A DNA stretch of 64,000 nt from an uncultured Actinomycetota bacterium (GCA_963735115.1 CAVTJR010000003.1:1096641-1160640), one strand, 5' to 3'; shown: positions 277-63,611, counted from the first letter of the stretch. The notes: generated from the sequence alone by a model not told the origin. A program made the numbers and translations.

Positions 277-1821
277 GTGGACGTCCTCGAGCTGATCCTG
301 GATCGTGCGCGCACCAGCCCCGATCGTCCCGCCGCAAAGGACCGTTCGAGCGATATCACCTACGGCGAGCTGGAGCAGGCGGTCGCCGAGCTCGCGAGCG
401 GACTCGGCGAACAGGGTGTCCGGGAAGGCGATCGCGTGTGTCTCCACCTCCCGAATTCAGTCGAGTTCCTGGTGGCGGCGCTCGCCTGTATGTGGGTGGG
501 GGCGATCTTCGTGCCGCTGGCGACGACGGATCCGGCGCCCCGCCGGCGCGCCGTCGTCGAGAACTGCGAGCCGGCGCTCGTGCTCGCCGACGCCGAGATG
601 CTGTCGGTTGCAGAGCGCGATGGCGAGCGGCTCTACGAGGGACGCCTGGTCCTTCCCGTAACTGCCGTCAACCGACCTGCCGGTGCGGCGCCGGCCCGGG
701 CGGACGACGACGACCGGCCGGCGTACTGCATCTATACGTCGGGCACGACGGCTTTGCCGAAGGGGGTGCTCATCGGGCATCGCTCTTTTCTCTGCGCGGT
801 TCTCGCCGCCGCCGAGCTGCTCGAGCTCGACGAGACGACTCGTTCCCTCTGCGTCTCGTCGTTTCACTTCGACGGTTCCTACGGCACCTTGTTCCCCACA
901 CCCGTCGCTGGGGGGTCGCTCGTGATCCCGCGACGCGAGGCCTTGATGCTCCCGCGGCTCTTCTTCAGGACGGTGGCGGACGAGCAGGTGACTCATACGA
1001 GCATGTCCCCGACTTACCTCCGGCTCCTGCTGCCCAGCCGCCACCTGCCCGAGCTGGCCCGGACGCCGCTTCGTACCATGGCCTTCGGCGGGGACGCCCT
1101 CTTCGCCGACGATCTCGAGCGGCTCTGGGCTTCGGTGCCCAGCCTTCGCGTCTTCAACCGCTACGGGCCGACCGAGACCACGATCGCCGTGACCACGCAC
1201 GAGCTGACGCCGGAGATTGTGGCTCTCGGGGATCCGCTGCCCATCGGTCGGCCACACGCAGGCGTCACCTTCTGGCTCGTCGACGACGAGGGCAAGATCA
1301 TCGACCGCCCGGGCGACGTGGGCGAGCTCTACATCGGCGGCAATCATCTCATGATCGGGTACTGGCGCGAACCGGCACTCATGAGCGAGGTGATGCGCAC
1401 CGACGTCGTGCCGGGAGAGACGGTCTACCGGACCCGCGACCTGGTGTTTCGCGATGACTCAGGTAGCTATCACTACGTCGACAGGTCGGATCGAGTGGTG
1501 AAGCGCAGCGGCATGCGCATCTCCCTTGTCGAGATCACCGCCTCCTTGACGAGCCTGAGCAGCATCTCGAAGGCGCACTGCGTGGCCTACGACAAAGACG
1601 GTGGAGTCGGCATCGCGGCTTTTGTCGTGCCGATCGTCGCCATCACCGGCCCGGAGCTTCGCCATGCAGCCCGCGACCGCCTGCCGGCGACGATGCTGCC
1701 GGACGTCATCGAAGTCGTGGCCGACTTCCCCCTCACCGGCTCCAACAAGGTGGACGAGCGGGCGATGCTGCAAGCCGCCGGGTTGCAGGAGTTGGGCAAG
1801 GAGGGACTCCGGTCCGGCTGA
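277..1821 (+). CDS. stand-alone NRPS-type adenylation enzyme (ANL superfamily)
   Basis: Core motifs: A3 YTSGTTALPKGV, A4 FHFDGS, A5 NRYGPTETT, A7 YRTRDL, A8 YVDRSDRVVKRSGMRISLVEI, A10 PLTGSNKVD. Confidence 0.9.
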   Translation: MDVLELILDRARTSPDRPAAKDRSSDITYGELEQAVAELASGLGEQGVREGDRVCLHLPNSVEFLVAALACMWVGAIFVPLATTDPAPRRRAVVENCEPALVLADAEMLSVAERDGERLYEGRLVLPVTAVNRPAGAAPARADDDDRPAYCIYTSGTTALPKGVLIGHRSFLCAVLAAAELLELDETTRSLCVSSFHFDGSYGTLFPTPVAGGSLVIPRREALMLPRLFFRTVADEQVTHTSMSPTYLRLLLPSRHLPELARTPLRTMAFGGDALFADDLERLWASVPSLRVFNRYGPTETTIAVTTHELTPEIVALGDPLPIGRPHAGVTFWLVDDEGKIIDRPGDVGELYIGGNHLMIGYWREPALMSEVMRTDVVPGETVYRTRDLVFRDDSGSYHYVDRSDRVVKRSGMRISLVEITASLTSLSSISKAHCVAYDKDGGVGIAAFVVPIVAITGPELRHAARDRLPATMLPDVIEVVADFPLTGSNKVDERAMLQAAGLQELGKEGLRSG

Positions 1822-1870
1822 GGGCGCTGTCTGCGGCCCGTTGTCGCGGGTCGCGAAACCGCCGGCCGCA

Positions 1871-3682
1871 TCAGCGGAGAAAGTGCCGGCTGGCGTAGTC
1901 GACGATCAAGTCGGACACCTCGTCTCGATCCCTCGGATGGCGTAGGGCGTGATCGAGGGCGGAGATCATCTCGAGCTGCAGCTCTCCTGCGTTGGCGGAT
2001 CGCAGGCGAGGGTGGTCTGCCGCGTGCCGGAAGGGTCGTATCTCCTCAGAGCCGCAGATCAACAGCACGTTCGATCCAGCTAACACGAGGTCCGCCAGGT
2101 GCTCGCTCGGGCCGCTTTTCGGGCCTCCTGGGCGGGTTCCCAAACGCCACACAAGTGTGCGGTAGGGCCGGCCGAGTCGATCGAGGGCCGAGCGGATGCT
2201 TCGCCGCGCCCTCACCGTGGCCATCGGGTAGCGGGTGCCGATCCACCGGACGAGCGGAACCTGCTCCTCGAGCCATCGAATCGATGTCACTTTGTTCGTC
2301 GCCGTTGCGAGATGCGGTTCCGGGAGGAAGAACTTGCGTCGCGGATCGGCCGCACCGCCGTGCTCCATCTCCGGCGCCGGGAACGACACAGCCGGGTTCA
2401 GCGCGCAGACGCCCCGCGGCGACAGGATGGCCGCGGCCTCGAGTACGTGGTAGCCGCTCGAGCACAAGCCGAAGAGCACGACGTTCGAGGGTGCCTCTGG
2501 CGAGAGGGCGCGGGCGACGTCAACGACATCCTCGATCGCCGAGTAGGGGTAGACCCGCGGGGGCGTCGAGCCCCTCGGAGGGCTGTCGCCGACGCCGCTG
2601 AGATCCATGCGAACGCACCGGAGCCCCGCGGTGGCAAGGCGACGGCTGAGGTCGACCCAGAGTCGTCCGGGGCCGATGCGATGCTCGTTGGCGACGTTGA
2701 CGAACAGACACACCGGGCCGGTTGCGCCCTCCTTCGGCTCGGTCGATATCGAGAACAGCCCGAAGGGCCCGAGACGCACAGCACGCTCGACGACCGGCGT
2801 CGGCAGTCGGTCGCCGCTCTCGGACGCAGCCGCCCGATTGTGGCGCAAGGTGACGGCCACCTCGGCAGGCCGCGGCAGGGTGACCGAATGGCGGTCCTTT
2901 GGCATGACGTCGTCGATCCAGTCGACGATGGTTGCCAAGGCGCCGGCCGGCACGACCTGGAGCGGCGTTGGCATATCGAGGAGGTCGTCTTGGCCTGCCA
3001 CCTTGCGGTGCTCCACGTTCGGCAGGACGAGGCGGTCCACGAGGGTGCGCTCGGCCGGGTGGTCGACTCGAGTGAGCAGGAGCACCCGCTCCGCCAGAGT
3101 CGCCGTCGTCTCGTCGAATTCGAGCAGCGAGAGCTCACGCAGGATCTCTGGCGGGAGGAGGAAACCCGGAATGTCGTCTGGGGAGATGTTCGATTTACCC
3201 GCAACCTGGATGCGCAGGCTCAGCATGCGTTGCTCTCGAACGAACGACCGTCCGCTCGCGCACGGGTCCCACATGACGAGGGCTTCGAATGGTTCGAGGG
3301 CGCTGGTGAGTCCGGCAAGGAGGGCGCCGACGCGCATGCCCACGAGAGCGATGCGGGTCGCTCCCAACCCTCGCACGAAGTCAACGGCGTGGCGCACGTC
3401 ATCGAGCAACCCGATCGTGGCGTCCTGCTGATCGGTCCGGTCGAACGAGTCACCCGTCGAGCGGTAGTCGAAGCGGAGAGCGAGCAAGCCGGCGTCTGCG
3501 AGACTCCCGGCCAGGCGAGCGAATGTGGAGTATGCGCTCGTGTGCTCCCTGCCAAGCGGCGGGCAGAGAACGACGGCGCCGCGAACCTCGGCGCTGTTGG
3601 TATTGATGAGCCCGAACAGCGGTGATTCCTCCGGGCCGAACCAGGCCGACAGCGGCTGGTCAGGCGGGCGCTCGGACTTCAT
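1871..3682 (-). CDS. fused double alpha/beta-hydrolase-fold protein (N-half elbow GMRVG, C-half elbow GLCSS)
   Basis: 603 aa in two homologous halves (..LRFDYRSTGDS.. and ..VRMDLSGVGDS..). Nucleophile-elbow positions read directly from the translation. Lies 12 nt downstream of the ATP-grasp gene. Confidence 0.7.
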   Translation of the reverse strand: MKSERPPDQPLSAWFGPEESPLFGLINTNSAEVRGAVVLCPPLGREHTSAYSTFARLAGSLADAGLLALRFDYRSTGDSFDRTDQQDATIGLLDDVRHAVDFVRGLGATRIALVGMRVGALLAGLTSALEPFEALVMWDPCASGRSFVREQRMLSLRIQVAGKSNISPDDIPGFLLPPEILRELSLLEFDETTATLAERVLLLTRVDHPAERTLVDRLVLPNVEHRKVAGQDDLLDMPTPLQVVPAGALATIVDWIDDVMPKDRHSVTLPRPAEVAVTLRHNRAAASESGDRLPTPVVERAVRLGPFGLFSISTEPKEGATGPVCLFVNVANEHRIGPGRLWVDLSRRLATAGLRCVRMDLSGVGDSPPRGSTPPRVYPYSAIEDVVDVARALSPEAPSNVVLFGLCSSGYHVLEAAAILSPRGVCALNPAVSFPAPEMEHGGAADPRRKFFLPEPHLATATNKVTSIRWLEEQVPLVRWIGTRYPMATVRARRSIRSALDRLGRPYRTLVWRLGTRPGGPKSGPSEHLADLVLAGSNVLLICGSEEIRPFRHAADHPRLRSANAGELQLEMISALDHALRHPRDRDEVSDLIVDYASRHFLR

Positions 3683-3694
3683 ATTCGCCTGACG

Positions 3695-4972
3695 CTACTC
3701 ATAGACGACCGAGACCTCCTCACGCAGGCGTCGATCGAGAGCCCGAAGCTCCGCGACGTCGTCCACGGTGCCCTCGGCGGCAAAGACGAAGTCTCGATAG
3801 CCCTTGCGCCAATCGACCGACTGGCCAGGGCCGCGGTTGAGCAGCAGGTGCTCCACGCCCGGAAACGTCGCAGCCTCGTCGAATCCCTGCAGGCTGAGGA
3901 CACGGTGAGCGGACATGGGGGCCTGGATCACGGATCGAAACACGACTCGATCCATCTGCAGCAGCCTCTCGTGGGGAAGCTGCTCACCGAGTGCCAGTCG
4001 ACACCCCACATCGTAGAGGTCGAGCTTGCTCAGACGCCCGATCATCTCCGGTATTCCGCCGCCTGGTCGTCCGTTCACCTCGATGAGGCGAGGGCCGCTC
4101 GGCGCCAGCTTGATCTCCGTGTGCAGGCAGCCGCTTTCTATCTCGAGTGCCCTGGCTGCATCGACCGCCAGTTGGAGAACGGCGGCTCCATCCTCGTCGG
4201 AGAGCTCTGCCGGCATGAAATTGCCGGTCTCGCGAAACGGCTCGACGAAGCGGAAACGCCCCGTCATGGCGACGTTGCTCACGCGCCCGCCGCTCACGTA
4301 GCTCTCGACCGAGACGACTGGGGCGATCTGCTCGTCTCGTGACGGAGCTGCCGGTATGAACTCCTCCACCAGCATGGCTTCGCCGATCCCGTCTCGAGAG
4401 AGCTGCGACAGCGCCTCGAGGAGATGAGGGAACGACGGCACCGAGACGACGTTTTCGCTGCCCGTTCCGTGCCGTGGCTTGAGCACCGCCGGGAAGGAGA
4501 TGCGGCTCTCGATGTCGGCCAGGGCAGCGCCGTCGCCCGCCGGGGGAACCTCGGCGTAGCGAGGGACGGCAACGCCGCCTTGGTGGAGGGCGCGCCGCTG
4601 CACGAATTTGTCGACGAGCCGCTCCGCCACCTTCGGGGTATGAAAGGGCAGCTCGAGCTCCGCGGCGATCTCCGCCAGCCTGAGCATGCCGGCGTCCTGG
4701 AAGGTCACGATGCCGTCGGGTCTGTGGCGTCTGATGGCGGTGGCTGCCTGCGAAGTAGGCAGGCCTTCCAGGTGAACGACGTCCCCGAGCTTGCGCAGCA
4801 TCGCCGCGTGCACGGCGGCGACGTGGCGGTGCACCGGAGGGGTGGAATCGACCAGCCAGAGCAGCTCGTACCGCCCGGCCGCGAGGGGTGCGAGCGCCAT
4901 GGGGGACAGCTCCAACGGACTCGTCAGCACGGCCATGAGCGGCCGGCTGCGCTGCGGGCGAGCGGGCATCAT
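3695..4972 (-). CDS. ATP-grasp enzyme, L-amino-acid-ligase-like
   Basis: ATP-grasp hallmarks LVEEFI and HTEIKLAPSGPRLIEVNGRPGGG. ORF is open to 5203, but the first ~77 codons have poor third-position GC. Start placed at ATGATG 4972/4969; 4936 is an alternative. Confidence 0.75.
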   Translation of the reverse strand: MMPARPQRSRPLMAVLTSPLELSPMALAPLAAGRYELLWLVDSTPPVHRHVAAVHAAMLRKLGDVVHLEGLPTSQAATAIRRHRPDGIVTFQDAGMLRLAEIAAELELPFHTPKVAERLVDKFVQRRALHQGGVAVPRYAEVPPAGDGAALADIESRISFPAVLKPRHGTGSENVVSVPSFPHLLEALSQLSRDGIGEAMLVEEFIPAAPSRDEQIAPVVSVESYVSGGRVSNVAMTGRFRFVEPFRETGNFMPAELSDEDGAAVLQLAVDAARALEIESGCLHTEIKLAPSGPRLIEVNGRPGGGIPEMIGRLSKLDLYDVGCRLALGEQLPHERLLQMDRVVFRSVIQAPMSAHRVLSLQGFDEAATFPGVEHLLLNRGPGQSVDWRKGYRDFVFAAEGTVDDVAELRALDRRLREEVSVVYE

Positions 4973-5165
4973 CGCAGGTCCTGGCCGAAGGTTGCGGCCG
5001 TATCCGCCGACACGCCCGTCCGCCCGGGAGTCAGAGTCGCCTCGCCTGGGTGGCAAGGCAGCACCCTCAGGAGCGAGTCCAGCGGGCCGTGAAGTCACCC
5101 TCACCTCGGTGGCGCTTCCAGCACTCGGGCGGAGCCGGCTCCCACCCCCCGACTCACTTCGCGAG

Positions 5166-6941
5166 TCATCCGAGCAGCTCCTCGACGCAGCGTTGAGCGT
5201 CAAGGAAGACGCGTAGTCTGCTCTTCGGCGAGGGGAGATAGTGCGTGAAGTACCGCACGCCCTCCGTCAGCGCTCCCAGCAGGGAAAGATGCTGCTGCAC
5301 GCGCCCGTCTCGGTCGATGGGGTGGAAGTCCCTCGTGAGGGCCACGCTGCCGACGGGGGTGTCACCGTACTTGAACTGCTGCAGCCGTCCCTGCTGATAC
5401 AGGTTCGTCAGCAGCGGCGATGAGGAGCGATGCAGGGTCGGGTCCTCAAGATACCCCTGTACCAGCACGTCCACCGGTGCGGAGAAGGGCGTGTCGAGCT
5501 CCCTCGAACGGACCGTCCGACCGGAGTGTGACGTCGTCAGTCGAGGAGCAGGGCCGAAGGGGGCTTTCACGACCCCTGCGTCCATCAGCGCCAGCAGCTG
5601 CTGGGAGCGGATCGCCGGAGGTCCCGCCACGAGGCGGCTCACCTTGGAGCGGATGTTCGACTGGAAGTCGAGGTACGACTCGAGCGAGAGCCCGCCGAAC
5701 TCGATGACGGTTCGCATGGCGTCGCGCTGGAAGCGGAGCACCTCAGAAGCGGCCTTGACGGCGCTCGCCGGACCCTTCAGCGCCTCGTCCAGGTCCGTTT
5801 CGACCATGGCGTACACGCGGTCCTGGTAGTCCGTCGCCGACACGAAGCTGTCCTCGGGAGCGAAGAAATTTCGGCTGGCGTCGAACGAGCCGTAGCGCGC
5901 CGCGTAAGGCGCCACGACCGACTCGAAGTCGTTGATCGAGGACTGCTCCAGCCGGGCACGCACCTCTTTGGCGGCGTCCGGGCCTGCGGCCAGAGCAGCC
6001 GAGTGCAGGTAGTACCGGGCCTGCATCTCTGCGAAGATGAGGGGAAGCATCGTCGTCCGGAGATCGACGCGGCCGGCATCGGCCCGAATGGCGGCGACGG
6101 CCTCCTCGGTGCAGATGACCGAGGCATAGTCGTCGGTCTCGTCCAGAGCTTCGACGGCCTTGGCACAGTATGGGAATCCGCTTCGTGAGAACACGTAGAT
6201 GCGCGGCTCACGTCCGCTCGCCCGGTATCGCAAGCGATCGCCGCGCGGCACGAAGGAGCCGCCGTTGCCGAGCGTGAGCGCCGTGATGGCGTCAGTGGCA
6301 ACAAGGCCCATACCGACGATGCCGACAGAGGCGGTCGAGGGGATGGCGTCGACGTAGGGCGTGACGGGATACGGCCTCACCAGGTGCTCGGGATGATCGA
6401 GGTTGCCCGTGTGACCGGTCGTGAGGATGACGTGGTTGACGGCAAGGACCTCGCCGGTGTTGAGATACACGTGCTCGAGTCCGTCCGGTTGGCTGACGAT
6501 GTCGACGGCGAGCGCTCGGTGCGGGACGATCTCGAGCGGCCACGGCGCGTCCTCCACGAGCGTTTCGAAGAACCATTGCAGGTAAGCCCCGAGGACGCGC
6601 CGAGGCAGGTAGTCGTGGGGCGTGACCTCGCGTCCCGAGCGCGAGACGCGGCAACTGTCGCCGTTCCAGCGGTAGCCGACCTGCTTCGTCCATTCGTACA
6701 GGCCGACGCCGTAGCGGGGGGAGGCTCCCTCGTCGTCCCACGGGTAGAGCGAGAGCTGGCCGCACGGCGTGTTCAGGAGGAGGTACTCGGGCTCGTCCAA
6801 GGCGTACACGCCGGGTCCGGCCGTGCCGACCTCTACGACATGGACTCGAGTCGGGCACCGCTCAGTGCGAACAGCGTCCGCCAGACGCTCCAGCACGCAC
6901 AGCCCCCAGGCGCCGGCTCCGACGAGCGCGACCTCATTCAT
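5166..6941 (-). CDS. FAD/NAD(P)-binding oxidoreductase (YdhS/NAD_binding_9-like)
   Basis: Start placed at MNEVALVGAGAWGLCVLERL (GxGxxG dinucleotide fold). ORF is open to 7052, but that extension covers a structured intergenic hairpin. Confidence 0.7.
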   Translation of the reverse strand: MNEVALVGAGAWGLCVLERLADAVRTERCPTRVHVVEVGTAGPGVYALDEPEYLLLNTPCGQLSLYPWDDEGASPRYGVGLYEWTKQVGYRWNGDSCRVSRSGREVTPHDYLPRRVLGAYLQWFFETLVEDAPWPLEIVPHRALAVDIVSQPDGLEHVYLNTGEVLAVNHVILTTGHTGNLDHPEHLVRPYPVTPYVDAIPSTASVGIVGMGLVATDAITALTLGNGGSFVPRGDRLRYRASGREPRIYVFSRSGFPYCAKAVEALDETDDYASVICTEEAVAAIRADAGRVDLRTTMLPLIFAEMQARYYLHSAALAAGPDAAKEVRARLEQSSINDFESVVAPYAARYGSFDASRNFFAPEDSFVSATDYQDRVYAMVETDLDEALKGPASAVKAASEVLRFQRDAMRTVIEFGGLSLESYLDFQSNIRSKVSRLVAGPPAIRSQQLLALMDAGVVKAPFGPAPRLTTSHSGRTVRSRELDTPFSAPVDVLVQGYLEDPTLHRSSSPLLTNLYQQGRLQQFKYGDTPVGSVALTRDFHPIDRDGRVQQHLSLLGALTEGVRYFTHYLPSPKSRLRVFLDAQRCVEELLG

Positions 6942-53787: not shown

Positions 53788-55356
53788 GTGGCAACGGTAG
53801 GTGGGCAAGTAACCTGCCACGCCGTGCCCGGGCGACACTCCACGGCTCAGTGGCCGGCAGCGGTCGCCATCTGGGTTGGCGTGTCCGCCTTTGCCCTCAT
53901 GGCAGCCTGGAGCCTGGCTGCGCCTGTCTACTCCGGACCTGACGAGCCGGCCCAGGTCATCCGCGCAGTGTCCGTCGCCCACGGCGAGATCGTCGGGCAA
54001 CCCTTCCGCGGACCGAAGAACGCCAACACGAGGGTGGTAGTGCCGCAGGCGTACGCGATCGGCCACCATCTCGTGAACTGCTACAAATTCCACCCCGAGG
54101 TGCCGGCCTCGTGCGCCACGCCGGTGTCGATCTCTTCGAAACCGGTTCGGACCGTCACGTACGCGGGCCGTTACCCGCCGCTCTATTACCTGCTCGTGGG
54201 TTGGCCGTCGCTGATCGTCACGTCCAGCCTCGGAGTGCACCTGATCCGCCTCGTCGGCGCGCTGCTCGGCGCTCTCATGCTGGGGCTTGCCGTCTACGCC
54301 GTTCGCCGCTGGTCGACGGCGAGGACACTTCCGCTCGGGGTCTTGGTCGCCGCCACGCCGATGGCGCTCTACCTGGGTGGTGTCGTGAACCCAAACGGTC
54401 TCGAGATCACGGCTGCCATCTGCCTGTGGACGTCGGGACTGGTGCTGTTCACCGAGAACCGTCATGACCCTCCGCCTGGCCTTCTCGCCATCGTCACGCT
54501 CTCGGCGGCCGTGCTCACCTCGATGCGGGGCTTGTCGCCGCTGTGGACCGTTCTCATCCTGGCGATCGTCATCTCGCTCGGCTCCTGGCGTGACACCTGG
54601 CGGCTTCTGCGTACCCGACGGGGCGTCCAGATCTCCGCGGCCGTTCTCCTCGCCGTTGGCGTCGCCGCCGTCGCCTGGATCCTGGGCGACCATGCCCTCG
54701 ATCTGATCCACGCAGGCCTGCAGATCTCGCCCGGGACGTCCAACGGACAGGTCCTTTCGCTCTCGGTGCGCTCTGCTCCCTCGTGGATCCCTCAGATGGT
54801 CGGCATTTTTGGTTCGCTCGATACGCCGGCGCCATCGTGGGCTCTCGACGTCTGGTACGGCTGTGCTCTTGCGGTATTCGCTCTGGGCATGCTGGGCGCC
54901 ACGGCCCGCCGCCGCGCCGCCCTCATCGGGATTGTCCTCGTCGGATTCGTGCTCTCGGTGCTCGTGCAGTACGGGCAAGCCCGTCGTGTCGGTCTCGTGT
55001 GGGAAGGGCGCTACCTGCTGCCTTTTGCCGTCGGACTCGTGCTCGTGTCAACGGCCACCTCCGACCGGCCATCCTGGGGGTGCCCTCTTTGGCGGGCGCT
55101 GACGCCGATTCTCGCCATAGGGGTCTTCGCCGCCGACGCAGGGTCCCTCTTCCAACTGCTCCGGCGCTACACCGTTGGCGCCACTGGCCCCCTCGACCTC
55201 CGCGGCCCGTGGCGACCGCCCGGAGGCCCGTGGCTGCTGCTCGCCATGGCGGCGGTCGCCTCCGCCGCCTTCGCCGGCGGCATGGTGGCCGCCTCTCGAG
55301 GACCGCGTGAAGCCCCTCTGACAACCCTTGGCCCGTCGCTCGACCTTGGCGAATAG
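53788..55356 (+). CDS. DUF2142-like polytopic membrane protein (envelope glycan assembly context)
   Basis: YSGPDEPAQVIRAVSVAHGE after TM1, then at least 10 further TM segments. Confidence 0.65.
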   Translation: MATVGGQVTCHAVPGRHSTAQWPAAVAIWVGVSAFALMAAWSLAAPVYSGPDEPAQVIRAVSVAHGEIVGQPFRGPKNANTRVVVPQAYAIGHHLVNCYKFHPEVPASCATPVSISSKPVRTVTYAGRYPPLYYLLVGWPSLIVTSSLGVHLIRLVGALLGALMLGLAVYAVRRWSTARTLPLGVLVAATPMALYLGGVVNPNGLEITAAICLWTSGLVLFTENRHDPPPGLLAIVTLSAAVLTSMRGLSPLWTVLILAIVISLGSWRDTWRLLRTRRGVQISAAVLLAVGVAAVAWILGDHALDLIHAGLQISPGTSNGQVLSLSVRSAPSWIPQMVGIFGSLDTPAPSWALDVWYGCALAVFALGMLGATARRRAALIGIVLVGFVLSVLVQYGQARRVGLVWEGRYLLPFAVGLVLVSTATSDRPSWGCPLWRALTPILAIGVFAADAGSLFQLLRRYTVGATGPLDLRGPWRPPGGPWLLLAMAAVASAAFAGGMVAASRGPREAPLTTLGPSLDLGE

Positions 55357-55423
55357 CCTTATCGGAGCCATTCGACAAGAGCGTCACCGTCTGAGACAGT
55401 CGTTGCGGCCGGATCTCCAGCGG

Positions 55424-55820
55424 ATGGGGGTCGTGAGGGTGTCTCAGCGGGCGGCACGAGTGGTGGCGGTCGTTCTCGCCGCAGCCGCTCTCGTCGGCGT
55501 CGGCTTCTGGGGTGGCACGATGCTCCCGACTGGCACGGCCACACCGCAGGTCATCACAGGCGTCGTCGGGCTCGTCGGCGGGGTCGGGAACGAGTTCTAC
55601 CTCCGTCCGGTCGGCTCCGGCCAACCCGCCAGCTACGGGCTTTCCGACGACATCCCTTGGCGTGATTGCACACGGCACGTGGAATGAGGGCGTCGCGGCC
55701 ATTGCCTGCATGAAGCCCCTGTCGCATGGTCAACGCATCACGTTCGGGGTCGTCAACGCGAAGACCGAGCAAGGTGCACCCGGCGGGCCGATGGTCGTGT
55801 GGCTGGAGTGTCCCAGCTAG
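55424..55820 (+). pseudogene. small secreted protein split by an apparent +1 frameshift near 55665
   Basis: Signal/TM then ..SYGLSDDIPWRD in one frame. It continues naturally as AHGTWNEGVAAIACMKPL..VVWLECPS in the +1 frame. Confidence 0.35.
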
Positions 55821-55868: not shown

Positions 55869-56939
55869 GTGTTTACCTCGGTGAACCTCCGGCGAGCTAT
55901 ACACGCTGCGTCGACGGGCACCAGACTTGGGACTGTGGAGCTGATCATCGCCCGGAATCCCGACCCCGACAGCACTCTGCCCTACCTCATGCGGTTGCCG
56001 ATCGGCGACGGGTTGGTGTTCCGAACCAAGGACACGTGGCCGCGAACCGCGGCCGTGTACTGCCACCCGGTTCCCCTCGACGAGTGGCCGGCCGATCCCG
56101 AGGTAGTCGAGCACATGCGCTTGCTGGCGTGCACCCGCCGCGGTGCCGCCATCGACATCGTCGTGGACCGGGGGCGTGAGCAACGCTCGCAGATCGTCTT
56201 CACGACGGCCCGCGGTCGTGACGTGGTCTTCTGGCAGTCGGCCCGGACGCGCAAAAAGGCGCGGCCCGACGTACGCCTCCCGACCGCCCGAGCCGCCCAT
56301 ATCGAACTGTTGGAAATCGCCGTCGACGCTCACGAGCGCTACGCCTACCGATTCGGTGCCCAGCAGGTCCGGGTCGTGGTTCGCGCCCTGCCGTGCGGCG
56401 ATTACGCAGTCACCCTCGCTGGGCGGCTAGTGGCCTCGGTCGAGCGCAAGTCGCTCGCCGACCTGGTGTCCAGCCTGACCACGGGACGCCTCGGTTTCGC
56501 CCTCGGGCAGCTCGCCACGCTGCCGCGTGCGGCAGTGGTGGTGGAGGATCGCTACTCCGAGATCTTTGCCGGCAAGTGGGTACGACCCGCCGTCGTCGCC
56601 GACGCACTGGCCGAGGTACAAGTCCGCTGGCCGAGCGTGCCCATCGTGTTCTGCGAGAACCGCAAGCTGGCTGAGGAGTGGACCTACCGGTACCTCGCCG
56701 CCGCTCACCTCTGGGCCGAGACCGAGGCCCCAGCGATGGCCCGGATGGGCCTTGCCGACGATCAAGCTGCCGGCCCCGCCGCGCCCGAGCCGTCCAGCGC
56801 CGAGCTGCGGGAGTGGGCCCGTGCAAACGGTCTCACCGTCTCCGACCGTGGCCGCATACGACCCCACGTGTTGCAGGCGTGGAAAGACGCCCACGGCGGA
56901 CCCTTGGTCGGCCAAGCGACGGAGGAATGGCCCCGCTAG
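55869..56939 (+). CDS. ERCC4/XPF-type nuclease domain fused to an Lsr2-type C-terminal DNA-binding domain, with an uncharacterised N-terminal domain
   Basis: GDYAV..SVERKSLADLVSSLTTGRLGFALGQL (GDxn-ERKxxxD signature). C-terminus ELREWARANGLTVSDRGRIRPHVLQAW matches the Lsr2 RGRI DNA-binding motif. Confidence 0.75.
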   Translation: MFTSVNLRRAIHAASTGTRLGTVELIIARNPDPDSTLPYLMRLPIGDGLVFRTKDTWPRTAAVYCHPVPLDEWPADPEVVEHMRLLACTRRGAAIDIVVDRGREQRSQIVFTTARGRDVVFWQSARTRKKARPDVRLPTARAAHIELLEIAVDAHERYAYRFGAQQVRVVVRALPCGDYAVTLAGRLVASVERKSLADLVSSLTTGRLGFALGQLATLPRAAVVVEDRYSEIFAGKWVRPAVVADALAEVQVRWPSVPIVFCENRKLAEEWTYRYLAAAHLWAETEAPAMARMGLADDQAAGPAAPEPSSAELREWARANGLTVSDRGRIRPHVLQAWKDAHGGPLVGQATEEWPR

Positions 56940-58166: not shown

Positions 58167-58511
58167 TCAGGGCGGCGATACGGCCAGCTCAAATCCTCGA
58201 AGCTCTACCGCGGCTGCGTACAGGTGCCGAAACGCCGCCTCGAAGTCGCCGTCTTCGGCGCAATCCGCGTCGACGTCCTCGAGGGCTGCGGTGATTCGGT
58301 AGACGCCGTCGCGGAGCCGTTCGAAGTCAGAAACGCTGATGGGCACTTCATGCGCCTGCAACGTGCCGGTCAGCTGACGCCTCCTCAGCTCGTAGGCCCG
58401 CTGGCGGCACGACTGGCGGCAGTACTGACGCGGCCGTCCGCGCGCTTCATCGCTCTCGACCAAACTTCGGCCGCACCACTGGCACCTGGGGACCCCGCGT
58501 CCTTTCGTCAC
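58167..58511 (-). CDS. small zinc-ribbon hypothetical protein
   Basis: CQWCG..x17..YCRQSCRQRAYELRRR. GTG start without a clear RBS. Preferred over the overlapping + strand ORF 57999-58607. Confidence 0.45.
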   Translation of the reverse strand: MTKGRGVPRCQWCGRSLVESDEARGRPRQYCRQSCRQRAYELRRRQLTGTLQAHEVPISVSDFERLRDGVYRITAALEDVDADCAEDGDFEAAFRHLYAAAVELRGFELAVSPP

Positions 58512-59585: not shown

Positions 59586-62015
59586 TCAGTGGATCACGGT
59601 CACCTTCGTCGACACCTCGTCTGGAAAGAGCATGGGTTGCTGGTACCACCCGAGAACGTAGTGCGACAGCGTCCGGCGCCAGCTGCCTGCCAGGTGGAGC
59701 TGGAGCACCGCCGTGTCGTCGGACTGAAGGGCGATGTAGGCCCCGTAGACGTTGCGCCCACCTTCGAACTGGCTCGTCAGGTCAACCGGACGACCGTTCT
59801 CGCTCGCCGAGAGCAGCCTCCAGGGTGAGTAGATGGAGACCCACACGAGCGCCTCACCCGGCCGTGTGTCCGTCCCCTGAAACCCGTCGATGACCGTGGG
59901 TGGCTGCCCGGAGGAGGGTGCGGAATTCGTGAGTGTGAGCGTGAGGGTGGAAGTGATCGTCCGGCTCGGCAGGTTGAGCGTGGCGTCGTAGGCGATCTTT
60001 CGTCTCAGGTACCAGTCGATCTTGTTGCCTGCTCCGTTCTGGGTGACGACCCCGACGAAGTCGCCGGCGGGCGGTGGATACGGCCAGGAGGCGCCGGCGA
60101 TGCGCACGTCCTTGAAGAAGCTCTCGGTGGGCGCTGAGTCGCTGTACATCATCAGGTGGCCACCCTCGACGGCCGGGCGGAGGTCCTCGACCATCTGTGA
60201 CACGGGCGGGAGGGAACGGGAGACGAGATCGTCGAATACCTGTTTGAGGAGGCTCTCGACGAACTTGATGCGCACGGCGTCGTCCGGGAACTCCACGAAC
60301 TCGTCGTGCGCCAGGAACGGGACGACATTGTCTCGTGTCACCGGCTCGCCCAAGCCCGTCGCCCGTACTGGCCCGATCATCTCCAGCAGCCCGGCCAAGG
60401 CGACCGGGTCGACGCTGATCACCCCGTTGACGGCGACGCCACCGGACTGAGGAAACAGGTAGGAGGCCACCTCCCCCACCGTCTCGAAGTCCGGCGACAT
60501 CACGATGTTCTGCCAGTGACCCTGAGGAAAGTACGACTCGTATCGATCGATGAAGTCCGTCATGCTGCGGCGGTTGGCACTCGTGATGGCTGGCAGCTTT
60601 CGATCCACCGGTGGAACGCCGTCGTTGTTCAGTTGCTCGACTGAGCCCACCTTGACGAGGTGAAGGCGGCCGTCGTCGGCGCGCACTTCGGCGTAATCAC
60701 CGATCACTCCCCCACTCGCCCGGCTCTCTGCCGGATTCTCGACCAGCACTAGGTAGGTGCGTGGCCCGGTCGCCCCGAGGATGATGGGTACCTGCTGAGA
60801 ACCGAGGAGGGCGATCATGGCGTCCCGTTGTGCTCGTTGCAGCCTGGACCTCTCGACGGCGAGCTTGTGCTTGAGTGCTCCCAGCAGCCAAGGTGAGGAC
60901 CAGGACGAGGTCTCGGAGTTCACTCTGGCGAGAATGGCGAGGTCCTCCCGGAAGATCGGTTCGTAGGACTCGAGTTGGCGGACCGGGAAGGTTCCGCTGA
61001 CTACGGCCAGCTGCGAAACGCTGGCCGACGTGGCCGTCGTGAGGCCAGCTCGAGCGAGGGATCGCCCGACGGCGGCAGCCGACCGGATCGCCCGCACCTG
61101 CTGGGAGACGATCGGCACGACTTCGGAGGCACGCGCCCAGGCGAGATCGCCCGAGGCCGACTGGAAAGCGGTGTCGGCGCGTCGGAACTCGGCGATCGCC
61201 GCCGACTGGTCTCCATGTTCCGCCGCGCTCAGCCCGTTGCGTGCCGCCGTCAGGGCCGTTTGCAGGGGCGCGCGAGCCTGCAGGAGCGCCGCCGCCGCCA
61301 CCGCGGAGAGGAGCAAGGCGGCCAGCACGGCGAGGCCGGCAGCGATGATGGCCAAGCGTCTCTCGGCAGCGGGCGCTGCCACGGCGGCGGGAACGAGGAT
61401 CAGGAGCACGACGACTCCCGCCAGCAGCGATGTCATCAGGCTGACGTGAGGCCAGCTCGCCCGCACCGCCATTCCCGCCAGTGAGCCGGCTGCCGCCGAT
61501 CGCGCCGCCCACGACCATGGCCGAGGCCGAGCCGGCTGATCGGTCCGCCACCCCACGAGGGCGATCGCGAGAACCCCGACGGCGACGAGCGCCCCCGCCG
61601 AGCCGTAGCAGGCAGCGGCGGCGACGGCACCGGCAGCCGCCAGGAAGGGCCAAGGCGCCCTGCGGCCGGCAGCGACGCAGACGAGGGCCAGCAAGACCTT
61701 GAAGGCGGTGTCGAGCGGCGCGATACCCGTCGGAGCGCCCCGGGCGAGACCAGTCGCCACCGCGGCGGCGGCGGCGATCGACAGCGTGACGGCCAGCTCC
61801 GGAAAGGAGGCCGGAGAGCGTCCCGACGCATGCCGAGGCACGCCCGCGACGTGGGTCTCCGCAAGGGCGAGCGATGGCCGCGTCGGCGCCGAGGTGAGGT
61901 CGTCCTCGTCTGGCGGCATCCGATCCACGGCCGACATCATGGTCGTTGCCCGCTCGCTTCGCCGTCCGCCCCGCAGCTGCGGACACGGCGACTCGGCCCA
62001 GGCGGGAGTGGTCAA
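59586..62015 (-). CDS. DUF4012-like membrane protein (N-terminal multi-TM, large extracytoplasmic domain)
   Basis: About 8 TM segments then ..NPAESRASGGVIGDYAEVRADDGRLHLVKVGS.., a pattern I associate with DUF4012. Start is uncertain (62015 or 61940). Confidence 0.65.
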   Translation of the reverse strand: MTTPAWAESPCPQLRGGRRSERATTMMSAVDRMPPDEDDLTSAPTRPSLALAETHVAGVPRHASGRSPASFPELAVTLSIAAAAAVATGLARGAPTGIAPLDTAFKVLLALVCVAAGRRAPWPFLAAAGAVAAAACYGSAGALVAVGVLAIALVGWRTDQPARPRPWSWAARSAAAGSLAGMAVRASWPHVSLMTSLLAGVVVLLILVPAAVAAPAAERRLAIIAAGLAVLAALLLSAVAAAALLQARAPLQTALTAARNGLSAAEHGDQSAAIAEFRRADTAFQSASGDLAWARASEVVPIVSQQVRAIRSAAAVGRSLARAGLTTATSASVSQLAVVSGTFPVRQLESYEPIFREDLAILARVNSETSSWSSPWLLGALKHKLAVERSRLQRAQRDAMIALLGSQQVPIILGATGPRTYLVLVENPAESRASGGVIGDYAEVRADDGRLHLVKVGSVEQLNNDGVPPVDRKLPAITSANRRSMTDFIDRYESYFPQGHWQNIVMSPDFETVGEVASYLFPQSGGVAVNGVISVDPVALAGLLEMIGPVRATGLGEPVTRDNVVPFLAHDEFVEFPDDAVRIKFVESLLKQVFDDLVSRSLPPVSQMVEDLRPAVEGGHLMMYSDSAPTESFFKDVRIAGASWPYPPPAGDFVGVVTQNGAGNKIDWYLRRKIAYDATLNLPSRTITSTLTLTLTNSAPSSGQPPTVIDGFQGTDTRPGEALVWVSIYSPWRLLSASENGRPVDLTSQFEGGRNVYGAYIALQSDDTAVLQLHLAGSWRRTLSHYVLGWYQQPMLFPDEVSTKVTVIH

Positions 62016-62063
62016 TCGGGTATGCCTCCGGTAGCATTTCGCCTCCGTGCGACCCAGCTCCCG

Positions 62064-63611
62064 ATGACCGCGACGACCGGAGCGAGGACCCCTTGGGCGC
62101 CGGCGACGCCGGATCGGTCCCTCTCGCTACGAGGCCGGATTCTTCTCCTGCTGATGTTGAACGAGGTGGTGCTGATCGCGTTGTGGCGATACACCGCCCG
62201 GCCAGTGGCAGGCGCCTTCGTGGCAGCGACGGCGTTCTGGGGGCTGCTGGCGCTCTGCCCCAGCGCCGTCAACCAGCGTGTGATCTTCTCGGTGCGCAAT
62301 TACATGCTGTACGCCTTCTGGGGGACGATGGTCCTCGGACCGCCCGTCATGTTGTTCGAGTCCATCTACCCGCGTCTCTACCTTCTTTCCAGCGCGTCGT
62401 GGAACTGGATGGTGGACATCTGGCCCTACATGCTGCCTGCTGCCCTCCTATGGAGCCTTGCCTTCGCCGCGTACGTCATCTCGCAGCGTCCCCGCGTGAG
62501 CGCTCCCGCCACCGCGCCCAACCGCAGGCGCCGAGCCCGGCGCCGTGACGACTCCGGCGAGCGGCCAGCCAGTTGGATGCTCGTCACCGGGATCGTCCTC
62601 ATCGTGGCGGGCGCTGCCGGGATTCTGGCGGTCACCGGGTCGCTTCACGCCCTGCTGTCGGTTGCCGGCAAGGAGAGCAACACGAACGCTGTCTTCCAGA
62701 GCGACTCCGGTACGTACCGCTACACGATCTGGGTGGAGGGCGTTCCCGTCGGCGCCGCCCTCGTCTGGTACTACGTCACCCAGCGCCGACCGATGGGACG
62801 GTTGTCATCGGCCATTTGGCTCGGTGTCCTTTACCTGCCGCTCGTCCCGTTCTACCTCTACAACTCCGGTCGAGAGTCCACCCTCGGGCCCTTGCTAGTC
62901 CTGTTCGCCCTCTATCACCGCTATGTGCTGCCGTTTCGGGCTCGGTGGTTGCTCGTGGGTCTCCTGCTTGCCCTACCGGGTCTCGCCGCCTGGAAGAACT
63001 ACCGGGAAGCCCCCAGCAACGTCTCCATCACTCAGGTGGCCGTGTCACCGGCCAACGTCACTGACACGGTCGCCGGCGACATCTCTCGGTTCGACGTCAG
63101 CGTGGTGAGCCTTGCCGGCTTCGAAACGAACCACATGGGGTACTACCTGGGGACGACGCTCGTGGCGGCCGCCACCGAATGGCTCCCGCCCCCGCTCTCG
63201 AAGGTGTTCCCGGTGAACGGCACGATGGCTCAGGCCCAGACCTTCGTGGGGAACGCCTCCTGGAGGGGCAGTGCCAGCTACGCCACCTCCATGATGACCG
63301 AGAGCTTCCTCAACTTCGGCGTCCTCGGTGTGGCGGTGTTCTTCCTCCTCCTCGGACGATTGGTGCGATGGTTGGATCGTTTCTGTGAGTCCGGCAGCAT
63401 CCTCGCCTATGTCCTCGCCCTCGAGTTCGCCCTTCGGATCCCTTTCGGCATCACGATCAGTCAAGGTGTGAGCGACATCCTTGCCGGGGTCCTACTGCCC
63501 TTCCTCGTGGCGGTGATCGTTCGCGCCCTCCTCGGTGTCCGGCGGCACCGCCGCCTCGACGGTGCCGCCTCGCTCGCCGGCCGAGCGACACGAGGAGCGG
63601 CTGGCGTGTGA
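62064..63611 (+). CDS. polytopic membrane protein, O-antigen polymerase/ligase (Wzy)-like
   Basis: At least 10 TM segments with one larger loop. ATG 62064 chosen because the upstream part of the ORF overlaps the divergent gene. Family call is from context only. Confidence 0.5.
   Translation: MTATTGARTPWAPATPDRSLSLRGRILLLLMLNEVVLIALWRYTARPVAGAFVAATAFWGLLALCPSAVNQRVIFSVRNYMLYAFWGTMVLGPPVMLFESIYPRLYLLSSASWNWMVDIWPYMLPAALLWSLAFAAYVISQRPRVSAPATAPNRRRRARRRDDSGERPASWMLVTGIVLIVAGAAGILAVTGSLHALLSVAGKESNTNAVFQSDSGTYRYTIWVEGVPVGAALVWYYVTQRRPMGRLSSAIWLGVLYLPLVPFYLYNSGRESTLGPLLVLFALYHRYVLPFRARWLLVGLLLALPGLAAWKNYREAPSNVSITQVAVSPANVTDTVAGDISRFDVSVVSLAGFETNHMGYYLGTTLVAAATEWLPPPLSKVFPVNGTMAQAQTFVGNASWRGSASYATSMMTESFLNFGVLGVAVFFLLLGRLVRWLDRFCESGSILAYVLALEFALRIPFGITISQGVSDILAGVLLPFLVAVIVRALLGVRRHRRLDGAASLAGRATRGAAGV

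Follow-up and report, generated by a model that had tools for sequence, protein, structure and literature searches.

The window, a 64,000-nucleotide stretch of DNA from an uncultured Actinomycetota bacterium (GCA_963735115.1 CAVTJR010000003.1:1096641-1160640), encodes at positions 55869-56939 a protein in which an ERCC4 (XPF/Mus81/Hef-type) nuclease domain is preceded by a conserved N-terminal beta domain and followed by an Lsr2-type DNA-binding tail. This three-part nuclease represents a real and uncharacterised family. A sequence-only reading made beforehand had proposed the fusion of ERCC4 and Lsr2-type domains; Pfam finds both, and the motifs lie at the places quoted for them. The nuclease domain is probably active as judged from its sequence and modelled structure, and we tentatively regard the protein, with somewhat less than even confidence, as a structure-specific endonuclease that works as a homodimer on branched DNA during repair or recombination, encoded by an accessory gene that has been spread in part by plasmids and transposons.

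Searched by thirds, the protein gives ERCC4 in its middle and Lsr2 in its tail, with only a fold-level match (PDB entry 3P43) for the N-terminal part. The ERCC4 match (PF02732), which scores 62.8 bits against a cut-off of 24 (E = 4.2e-17), covers residues 152-274 and positions 1-139 of the 140 in the profile; the PDB sequence match of this part is the Pyrococcus Hef nuclease 1J22. The catalytic motif VDAHE...GDY...ERKSLAD is invariant in close homologues, 12 of which were aligned with the protein; VDAHE is encoded at 56322-56336, GDY at 56397-56405, ERK at 56442-56450 and the final Asp at 56460-56462. Among 34 diverse homologues, with identities as low as 32%, E134, G155, D156 and R171 never vary and conservation is 90% or higher at D131, E170, K172 and D176 (numbering of a 334-residue form described below). 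The catalytic residues, on whose presence in a proper alignment the sequence-only reading had staked its assignment, are thus all there and conserved. Foldseek matches of the central domain (E = 1.5e-7 to 1e-4) include Hef 1J22, with a template modelling (TM) score of 0.81 over the target, Aeropyrum XPF (2BHN/2BGW), human XPF (6SXA) and Mus81 (2ZIW/4P0P), and on sequence and model together the domain is probably a bona fide, active member of the XPF family. Neither archaeal Hef nor archaeal Xpf nor Rad1 is an orthologue of the protein, because its NCBIfam equivalog scores fall far below the cut-offs (33 bits for Hef, cut-off 610; 14.1 for Arch_Xpf, cut-off 300; 14.6 for rad1, cut-off 807). With Pfam at E values up to 1 there is no helix-hairpin-helix (HhH) family in the protein, whose C-terminus is instead Lsr2_DNA-bd, and neither a PCNA- or clamp-binding motif nor a helicase domain was seen.

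The tail matches Lsr2_DNA-bd (PF23359) over residues 308-341 with 42.6 bits (cut-off 26.9; E = 3.8e-11), and its PDB sequence matches are the Lsr2 C-terminal domains 6QKQ, 6QKP and 2KNG. An RGR motif encoded at 56847-56855 (R327, G328 and R329) is invariant in the alignment with 12 homologues. The dimerisation and oligomerisation domain of Lsr2 is missing, ERCC4 and Lsr2_DNA-bd being the only families that Pfam reports at E values up to 1, and for want of it the protein does not count as Lsr2. Among 1.84 billion representatives, searched exhaustively, there are 2,293 relatives at E ≤0.001, 304 of them at E ≤1e-30. Distant relatives (32-47% identity) have the same N-domain and ERCC4 core, and their tail is either absent, giving proteins of about 270 amino acids, or winged-helix-like, with weak matches to MarR, DeoR and DUF5817_CT. 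The winged-helix and tail-less clades are found in metagenome-assembled genomes (MAGs) labelled Chloroflexota/Anaerolineae, Trueperaceae (Deinococcota) and Bacillota, and the Lsr2-tailed clade is restricted to Actinomycetota. The catalytic residues are kept across all three clades, which argues for an active enzyme with a universal substrate.

Lsr2 DNA-binding domains also occur elsewhere, as in the fusions to Ku encoded by the cluster J mycobacteriophages Omega and Corndog (PMC8612146). The PADLOC model MTase_II (PDLC03328) has an Lsr2-type C-terminal tail at positions 527-571, to which the tail of the window protein matches at E = 4e-12. Because the tail is swapped or absent in sister clades and is found on Ku and in a methyltransferase model, the simplest reading of these sequences is that it would serve as a generic, interchangeable duplex anchor in the place taken by tandem HhH motifs, (HhH)2, in archaeal XPF. 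The Lsr2 DNA-binding domain prefers AT-rich minor grooves, and on this simplest reading that preference would be a secondary property of the tail. Some NCBI records (NZ_CP109056.1, NZ_CP118322.1 and others; P0043) name members of the family 'histone-like nucleoid-structuring protein Lsr2'. The members so named are ERCC4 nucleases of 320-340 amino acids without the Lsr2 oligomerisation domain, and the naming is likely to be a systematic misannotation; since the DNA-binding domain is portable, carried by Ku, by methyltransferases and by this nuclease, such record names mislead.

For the N-terminal part (the first ~130 amino acids of the open reading frame, or residues 1-105 of the 334-residue form) the sequence-only reading could name no relative. 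Nothing in Pfam, NCBIfam, PHROG or the PDB matches it in sequence, and Pfam searches of 28 N-domains at E values up to 10 returned nothing. The domain is the best-conserved part of the protein (W35, P36, C43, G70, R79, R84, S85, F99 and W100), and in the 34-sequence alignment it is co-conserved with the nuclease in all clades. Modelled alone with AlphaFold it has a predicted fold of eight strands plus a short helix and a predicted local distance difference test (pLDDT) score of 92.8. Foldseek against the PDB gave one convincing match, 3P43 (probability 1.00, E = 0.013, TM 0.66/0.60), which a profile of the LigD 3'-phosphoesterase (PE) domain, built from real ligD genes carried on plasmids, confirms as a PE member at E = 7e-57; a search of viral structures gave one analogous match, a model of an unnamed viral protein of 827 amino acids. 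In the register proposed by hhalign, FVIQKH..LHYDLR of PE lies opposite LIIARN..LPYLMR of the N-domain, so that Asn, Pro and Leu occupy the positions of the PE metal ligands His, His and Asp; in the 34-sequence alignment no His or Asp of this domain is invariant. Since the aligned ligands are replaced and no His or Asp is invariant, the N-domain is best described, from its model, as a PE-like beta domain lacking the PE active site and of unproven homology to PE; it probably binds nucleic acid.

The ERCC4-Lsr2 gene is a sporadic accessory gene, present at no fewer than 365 loci in 185,579 species genomes, a minimum imposed by the patterns used in the search. These loci are in Acidimicrobiia, Actinomycetes and Thermoleophilia, and their products are 63-75% identical; the ubiquity, joined to a demonstrated housekeeping repair role, that the sequence-only reading had weighed against itself is not what is seen. 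A neighbour-joining tree has taxonomic structure with clear intermixing, suggesting both vertical descent and horizontal transfer. No member of the family occurs in the 50,697 phage records of INPHARED, in which the only match is an archaeal virus ERCC4, or in IMG/VR.

Mobile copies are found on 24 actinobacterial plasmids. On the 21-kb M. intracellulare/lentiflavum plasmids the nuclease is one of 19 annotated genes and lies two small genes from a serine recombinase. It adjoins an insertion sequence (IS) element, IS21, in M. avium p2-JPH1 and in pMUM002, lies beside IS110 in M. chubuense pMYCCH.01, and adjoins a recombinase in Pseudonocardia pFRP1-1, where there is also a Tn3-family transposase. 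Rhodococcus megaplasmids have toxin-antitoxin genes or a Tn7-like module beside it; one Streptomyces plasmid also carries the gene. On plasmid pDK3 of Rhodococcus sp. DK176 (L096:665-6975) we note a Tn7-like tnsA-tnsB-tnsC-tniQ set in divergent orientation to the ERCC4-Lsr2 gene and about 380 bp from its start. Between plasmid copies at 88% DNA identity, homology stops 9-16 bp beyond the reading frame; a single-gene cassette was considered and led to no conclusion, as such ends could reflect decay of the non-coding flanks.

Genes were called in 80 loci, and an all-against-all BLAST comparison of the 950 neighbouring reading frames revealed no conserved neighbour or operon partner. Pfam assigns the 126 immediate neighbours to 123 different families, of which none is hit more than three times, and many of these neighbours are housekeeping genes (hemB, panB, pdxS, zwf). 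Some 6-8 of the 126 match any PADLOC defence model, scattered and with no recurrent system. Tyrosine recombinases are present within 8 kb in 9 of the 80 loci, and 71 of the 80, chromosomal or MAG, have none.

In three Mycobacterium MAG loci (L038, at 572-5490, L040 and L042) two overlapping tyrosine recombinases (434 and ~725 amino acids) are followed by a DUF6262 gene (140 amino acids), and the ERCC4-Lsr2 gene starts just 4 bp beyond it. We take this order to resemble the tnpA-tnpB-tnpC of the Tn554 family, presumably with the nuclease as first cargo. No such recombinases lie in the 47-64 kb part of the window. In a tail-less subclade (L104:2901-4663, L105:2132-4452, L098:2-1703 and L106:4066-6822) the nuclease gene is overlapped or abutted by a conserved upstream partner of 295-533 amino acids, with a Cys-rich N-terminus and no Pfam match, which lies downstream of an integrase and a helix-turn-helix gene. 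By eye the partner had been read as a divergent tyrosine recombinase, and this was withdrawn when Pfam and a custom tyrosine recombinase profile found nothing. The partner and the tail-less nuclease perhaps make up a two-gene system, with the former standing in for the missing DNA-binding tail; the partner protein is not found near Lsr2-tailed members, and other tail-less members are solitary amid housekeeping genes. In L106 (7009-8853) the tail-less ERCC4 relative is followed directly downstream by a Multi_ubiq / ThiF-DUF6791 / BubE set, a ubiquitin-like system of bacteria, which has an integrase on either side.

Taken together, the intact active site, the co-conservation of the N-domain, the swappable anchor, the lack of a partner, the high conservation and the ordinary gene contexts make a structure-specific endonuclease of repair or recombination the most economical explanation. 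XPF-family proteins dimerise through their ERCC4 domains, and by analogy the window protein would do the same. Its two Lsr2 tails would grip the duplex near a branch point, likely favouring AT-rich minor grooves, and so would play the part that (HhH)2 domains have in archaeal XPF and Mus81. The barrel at the N-terminus, putatively LigD-PE-like and without a metal site, may bind a single-stranded flap or a 3' end, and the nuclease, if it behaves as its relatives do, would cut at the junction of single strand and duplex in 3' flaps, splayed arms, forks or nicked junctions. Several features are consistent with such a scheme. An interchangeable tail parallels the nuclease and DNA-binding layout of the short archaeal XPF, and the Lsr2 domain recurs on Ku, itself a DNA-end repair protein (PMC8612146); in the predicted structure, the best fold match of the N-domain is an enzyme that processes DNA 3' ends. 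The gene is solitary and often sits amid housekeeping genes, as is common for accessory repair enzymes, and its product keeps 63-75% identity across three classes of Actinomycetota, with no partner, few defence neighbours and no phage copies.

Other points weigh against this scheme. The substrate class is suggested by membership of the superfamily alone, and a literature search turned up no biochemical or genetic study of any member. The relationship of the N-domain to LigD is not established, as hhalign gives probabilities of only 1.1-1.5% against real PE domains and PDB chains, and of the five solved PE structures (3P43, 3N9B, 2LJ6, 3P4H and 5DMP) just the first is matched, the other four being outside the top 50 Foldseek matches. 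A repair role does not explain why most Actinomycetota dispense with the gene; patchiness, plasmid copies and neighbours such as recombinases, IS elements, Tn7-like modules and toxin-antitoxin genes suit a mobile-element or conflict role equally well.

A conflict role takes up the suggestion of the sequence-only reading that the fusion targets AT-rich or foreign DNA in a defence-like manner: the Lsr2 head would find AT-rich foreign DNA in a host of 68% GC and the ERCC4 domain would cleave it, the gene being defence cargo of plasmids and transposons and the protein a nuclease of innate immunity or of conflict between elements. The intact RGR motif and the established AT-rich minor-groove preference of Lsr2 fit this, as do the patchy distribution with its intermixed phylogeny, the 24 plasmids, the adjacent IS21, IS110, Tn3-family and Tn7-like elements, recombinases and toxin-antitoxin genes, the Mycobacterium MAG copies behind a tyrosine recombinase pair and DUF6262, and the one tail-less relative between integrases and the Multi_ubiq/ThiF/BubE system. 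We consider it unlikely. The protein matches PADLOC-DB 2.0 only through its Lsr2 tail and no defence family beyond that, the neighbours show no defence-island signature, no system recurs among the 6-8 of 126 that match defence models, and chromosomal copies lie mostly amid ordinary genes. Sister clades carry a winged helix or no tail, so AT-targeting is no inherent property of the family, and Lsr2 tails are found on other proteins; identities of 63-75% across classes are unusually high for a defence gene, and nothing was identified that would shield the AT-rich regions of the host itself. These observations lend no support to the defence-like targeting originally suggested.

About as improbable is an accessory factor of mobile elements, which would process the branched DNA arising in plasmid replication, conjugation, multimer resolution or the reactions of tyrosine or serine recombinases, to the benefit of the element and not the host. 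It would account for the place of the gene among the 19 of the 21-kb mycobacterial plasmids, near a serine recombinase, for its position beside the recombinase of pFRP1-1 and 4 bp behind the module of two tyrosine recombinases and DUF6262, for the tail-less subclade overlapping a partner that lies behind an integrase and helix-turn-helix gene, and for the 9 loci of 80 with tyrosine recombinases nearby. It fares poorly with the 71 chromosomal or MAG loci that have no recombinase within 8 kb, with the absence of any recurrent neighbour, and with the window itself, which has no recombinase in 47-64 kb and no tRNA; other tail-less members are amid housekeeping genes, and the partner is missing near Lsr2-tailed ones. 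A version of the foreign-DNA idea confined to a single protein, borne by mobile elements and by some actinomycetotal chromosomes, in which the Lsr2 head would find AT-rich foreign DNA that is destroyed instead of silenced, and the N-terminal barrel would permit cutting on sensing a DNA end or an intermediate of replication, seems to us more doubtful again. Least of all do we credit a non-catalytic role as a counter-silencer or nucleoid protein, in competition with host Lsr2 for AT-rich DNA and with ERCC4 as a scaffold for dimerisation or DNA binding, for which the non-catalytic ERCC4 folds of ERCC1, Eme1, FAAP24 and LlaI.R1 (bioRxiv 10.64898/2026.08.31.748284) are a precedent, the Lsr2 names in NCBI records a hint, and the missing oligomerisation domain a trait expected of a dominant-negative competitor, but which is very unlikely because D..E, GD, ERK and D are invariant or nearly so in the 34 diverse members, unlike in a pseudo-nuclease, and clades without the Lsr2 tail retain the same core.

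The reading frame of the nuclease gene is 356 amino acids long, its coordinates including the stop codon, and its composition (GC of 0.72, 0.52 and 0.83 at the three codon positions; 0.80-0.91 at the third position in the other genes of the window) is typical of real genes in the window. Homologues number in the thousands, and in the alignment with 12 of them nearly all begin with M/V-ELLIARNPD, which points to the GTG at 55935 as the probable true start, for a protein of 334 amino acids. The long antisense reading frames that cross the gene are the usual by-product of a 68% GC content, and a scan for promoters and terminators found none around it. An AlphaFold model of the full protein from the 34-sequence alignment has a mean pLDDT of 88.6 and a predicted TM score of 0.74. 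The basic linker between the N-domain and the nuclease is predicted with low confidence, and its residues R126, T127, R128, K129, A131, R132 and P133 are invariant in the alignment with 12 homologues. A helix at residues 243-270 closes the nuclease domain; beyond it the pLDDT is 64-83 and the sequence is variable, with insertions and deletions among homologues.

Features of the ERCC4-Lsr2 nuclease gene, in window coordinates, with the evidence for each.
Feature	Position	Strand	Evidence
Maximal open reading frame of the nuclease	55869..56939	+	List of open reading frames, third-position GC 0.83, homologues
Probable start codon GTG, 334-residue form	55935..55937	+	Starts of homologues, sequence
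N-terminal all-beta domain (residues 1-105, 334-residue form)	55935..56249	+	AlphaFold pLDDT >90, conservation
Conserved basic linker from N-domain to nuclease (..RTRKKARPDVRLPTARAA..)	56241..56321	+	Invariant residues; pLDDT 55-73
ERCC4 (XPF/Mus81/Hef-type) nuclease domain, VDxxE...GDY...ERKx3D	56322..56690	+	Pfam PF02732, Foldseek, conservation
Long helix closing the nuclease and flexible Ala/Pro/Asp-rich linker	56691..56789	+	AlphaFold model, alignment
Lsr2-type C-terminal DNA-binding domain with RGR minor-groove motif	56790..56891	+	Pfam PF23359, matches to Lsr2 in the PDB

In the window the nuclease gene has a DUF2142 membrane protein upstream and a DUF4012 protein downstream, and between these two lie genes for a two-domain YbjQ, a protein of 114 amino acids, a GNAT acetyltransferase and an ArsR regulator. 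The neighbouring YbjQ is 100% identical to a protein on a contig labelled Acidimicrobiales, which places the window in a MAG of that order. The window contains no tRNA, and no recombinase was found in 47-64 kb. In the closest relatives, identified through YbjQ at 86-88% identity, the YbjQ locus is non-syntenic and lacks an ERCC4 gene, indicating that the gene is accessory in the lineage of the window. A clean insertion was sought by way of the same loci, and as these are non-syntenic neither insertion nor absence can be demonstrated. The accessory block said to interrupt an envelope locus is thus supported as regards the DUF2142 and DUF4012 flanks and the lack of synteny in relatives, and not as regards a clean insertion.

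Some other features of the region are noted in their own right. Just upstream of the nuclease gene, two overlapping reading frames on the same strand (55328..55687 and 55512..55820), the first without a Pfam match, look like a single membrane-anchored protein split by a frameshift. The 114-amino-acid reading frame between YbjQ and GNAT (58167-58511, minus strand) has a CxxC...CxxxC motif and an Arg-rich helix, and no Pfam match. The kilobase at 61001-62000 has the highest GC content in the window (0.742) and a strong AT skew (+0.24), and long reading frames on opposite strands, 59586..62015 (minus) and 61830..63611 (plus), overlap there. A relative of the window organism (L111:1130-4319) has three tandem tyrosine recombinases with overlapping ends (427, 307 and 329 amino acids), like a 'recombinase in trio', about 3 kb from its YbjQ orthologue.

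XPF/Mus81-family nucleases have been studied as archaeal and eukaryotic enzymes, and a full-text literature search found no paper on a bacterial member with the N-domain, ERCC4 and Lsr2 architecture. The family offers a compact, single-chain bacterial XPF-type nuclease, found on plasmids and in genomes by the thousand. It shares with the short archaeal XPF of Aeropyrum pernix (2BGW/2BHN) and with Pyrococcus furiosus Hef (1J22-1J25) the ERCC4 fold, the motif VDxxE...GDY...ERKx3D and the same logic, in which the nuclease is followed by a linker-borne C-terminal DNA-binding module. It differs from them in being bacterial, in having an Lsr2-type AT-hook-like domain where they have tandem helix-hairpin-helix, in its extra conserved N-terminal beta domain, and in equivalog scores that stay under the cut-offs. 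Eukaryotic Mus81-Eme1 and XPF-ERCC1 have the catalytic ERCC4 domain and motif in common with it (structural matches at E = 1e-5 to 1e-7), whereas the window protein has no heterodimer partner gene, (HhH)2, Mus81-type winged helix or helicase-like domain.

With Lsr2 (M. tuberculosis C-terminal domain, 2KNG, 6QKP and 6QKQ) the protein shares the DNA-binding domain and its RGR motif, but it is three times larger than Lsr2 (~110 amino acids), contains a nuclease and lacks the N-terminal dimerisation and oligomerisation domain; despite the database names, it is not a nucleoid-associated silencer. The Ku-Lsr2 fusions of Omega and Corndog likewise place an RGR-containing Lsr2 tail on a DNA repair or end-processing protein (PMC8612146), although theirs is a Ku ring borne by phages and the window family consists of ERCC4 nucleases not found in phages. 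The Lsr2 DNA-binding domain can thus be viewed as a portable module, and the exchange of (HhH)2, Lsr2 and winged-helix anchors, together with a new N-domain, as a natural experiment in the targeting of structure-specific nucleases. Lastly, the LigD 3'-phosphoesterase is an eight-stranded beta domain similar in size to the N-domain, for which eight strands are likewise predicted; the N-domain differs from it in lacking both a sequence-profile relation and the PE metal ligands. Should the N-domain truly derive from it, the family would join two toolkits for end processing in bacteria that rely on Ku/LigD end-joining.

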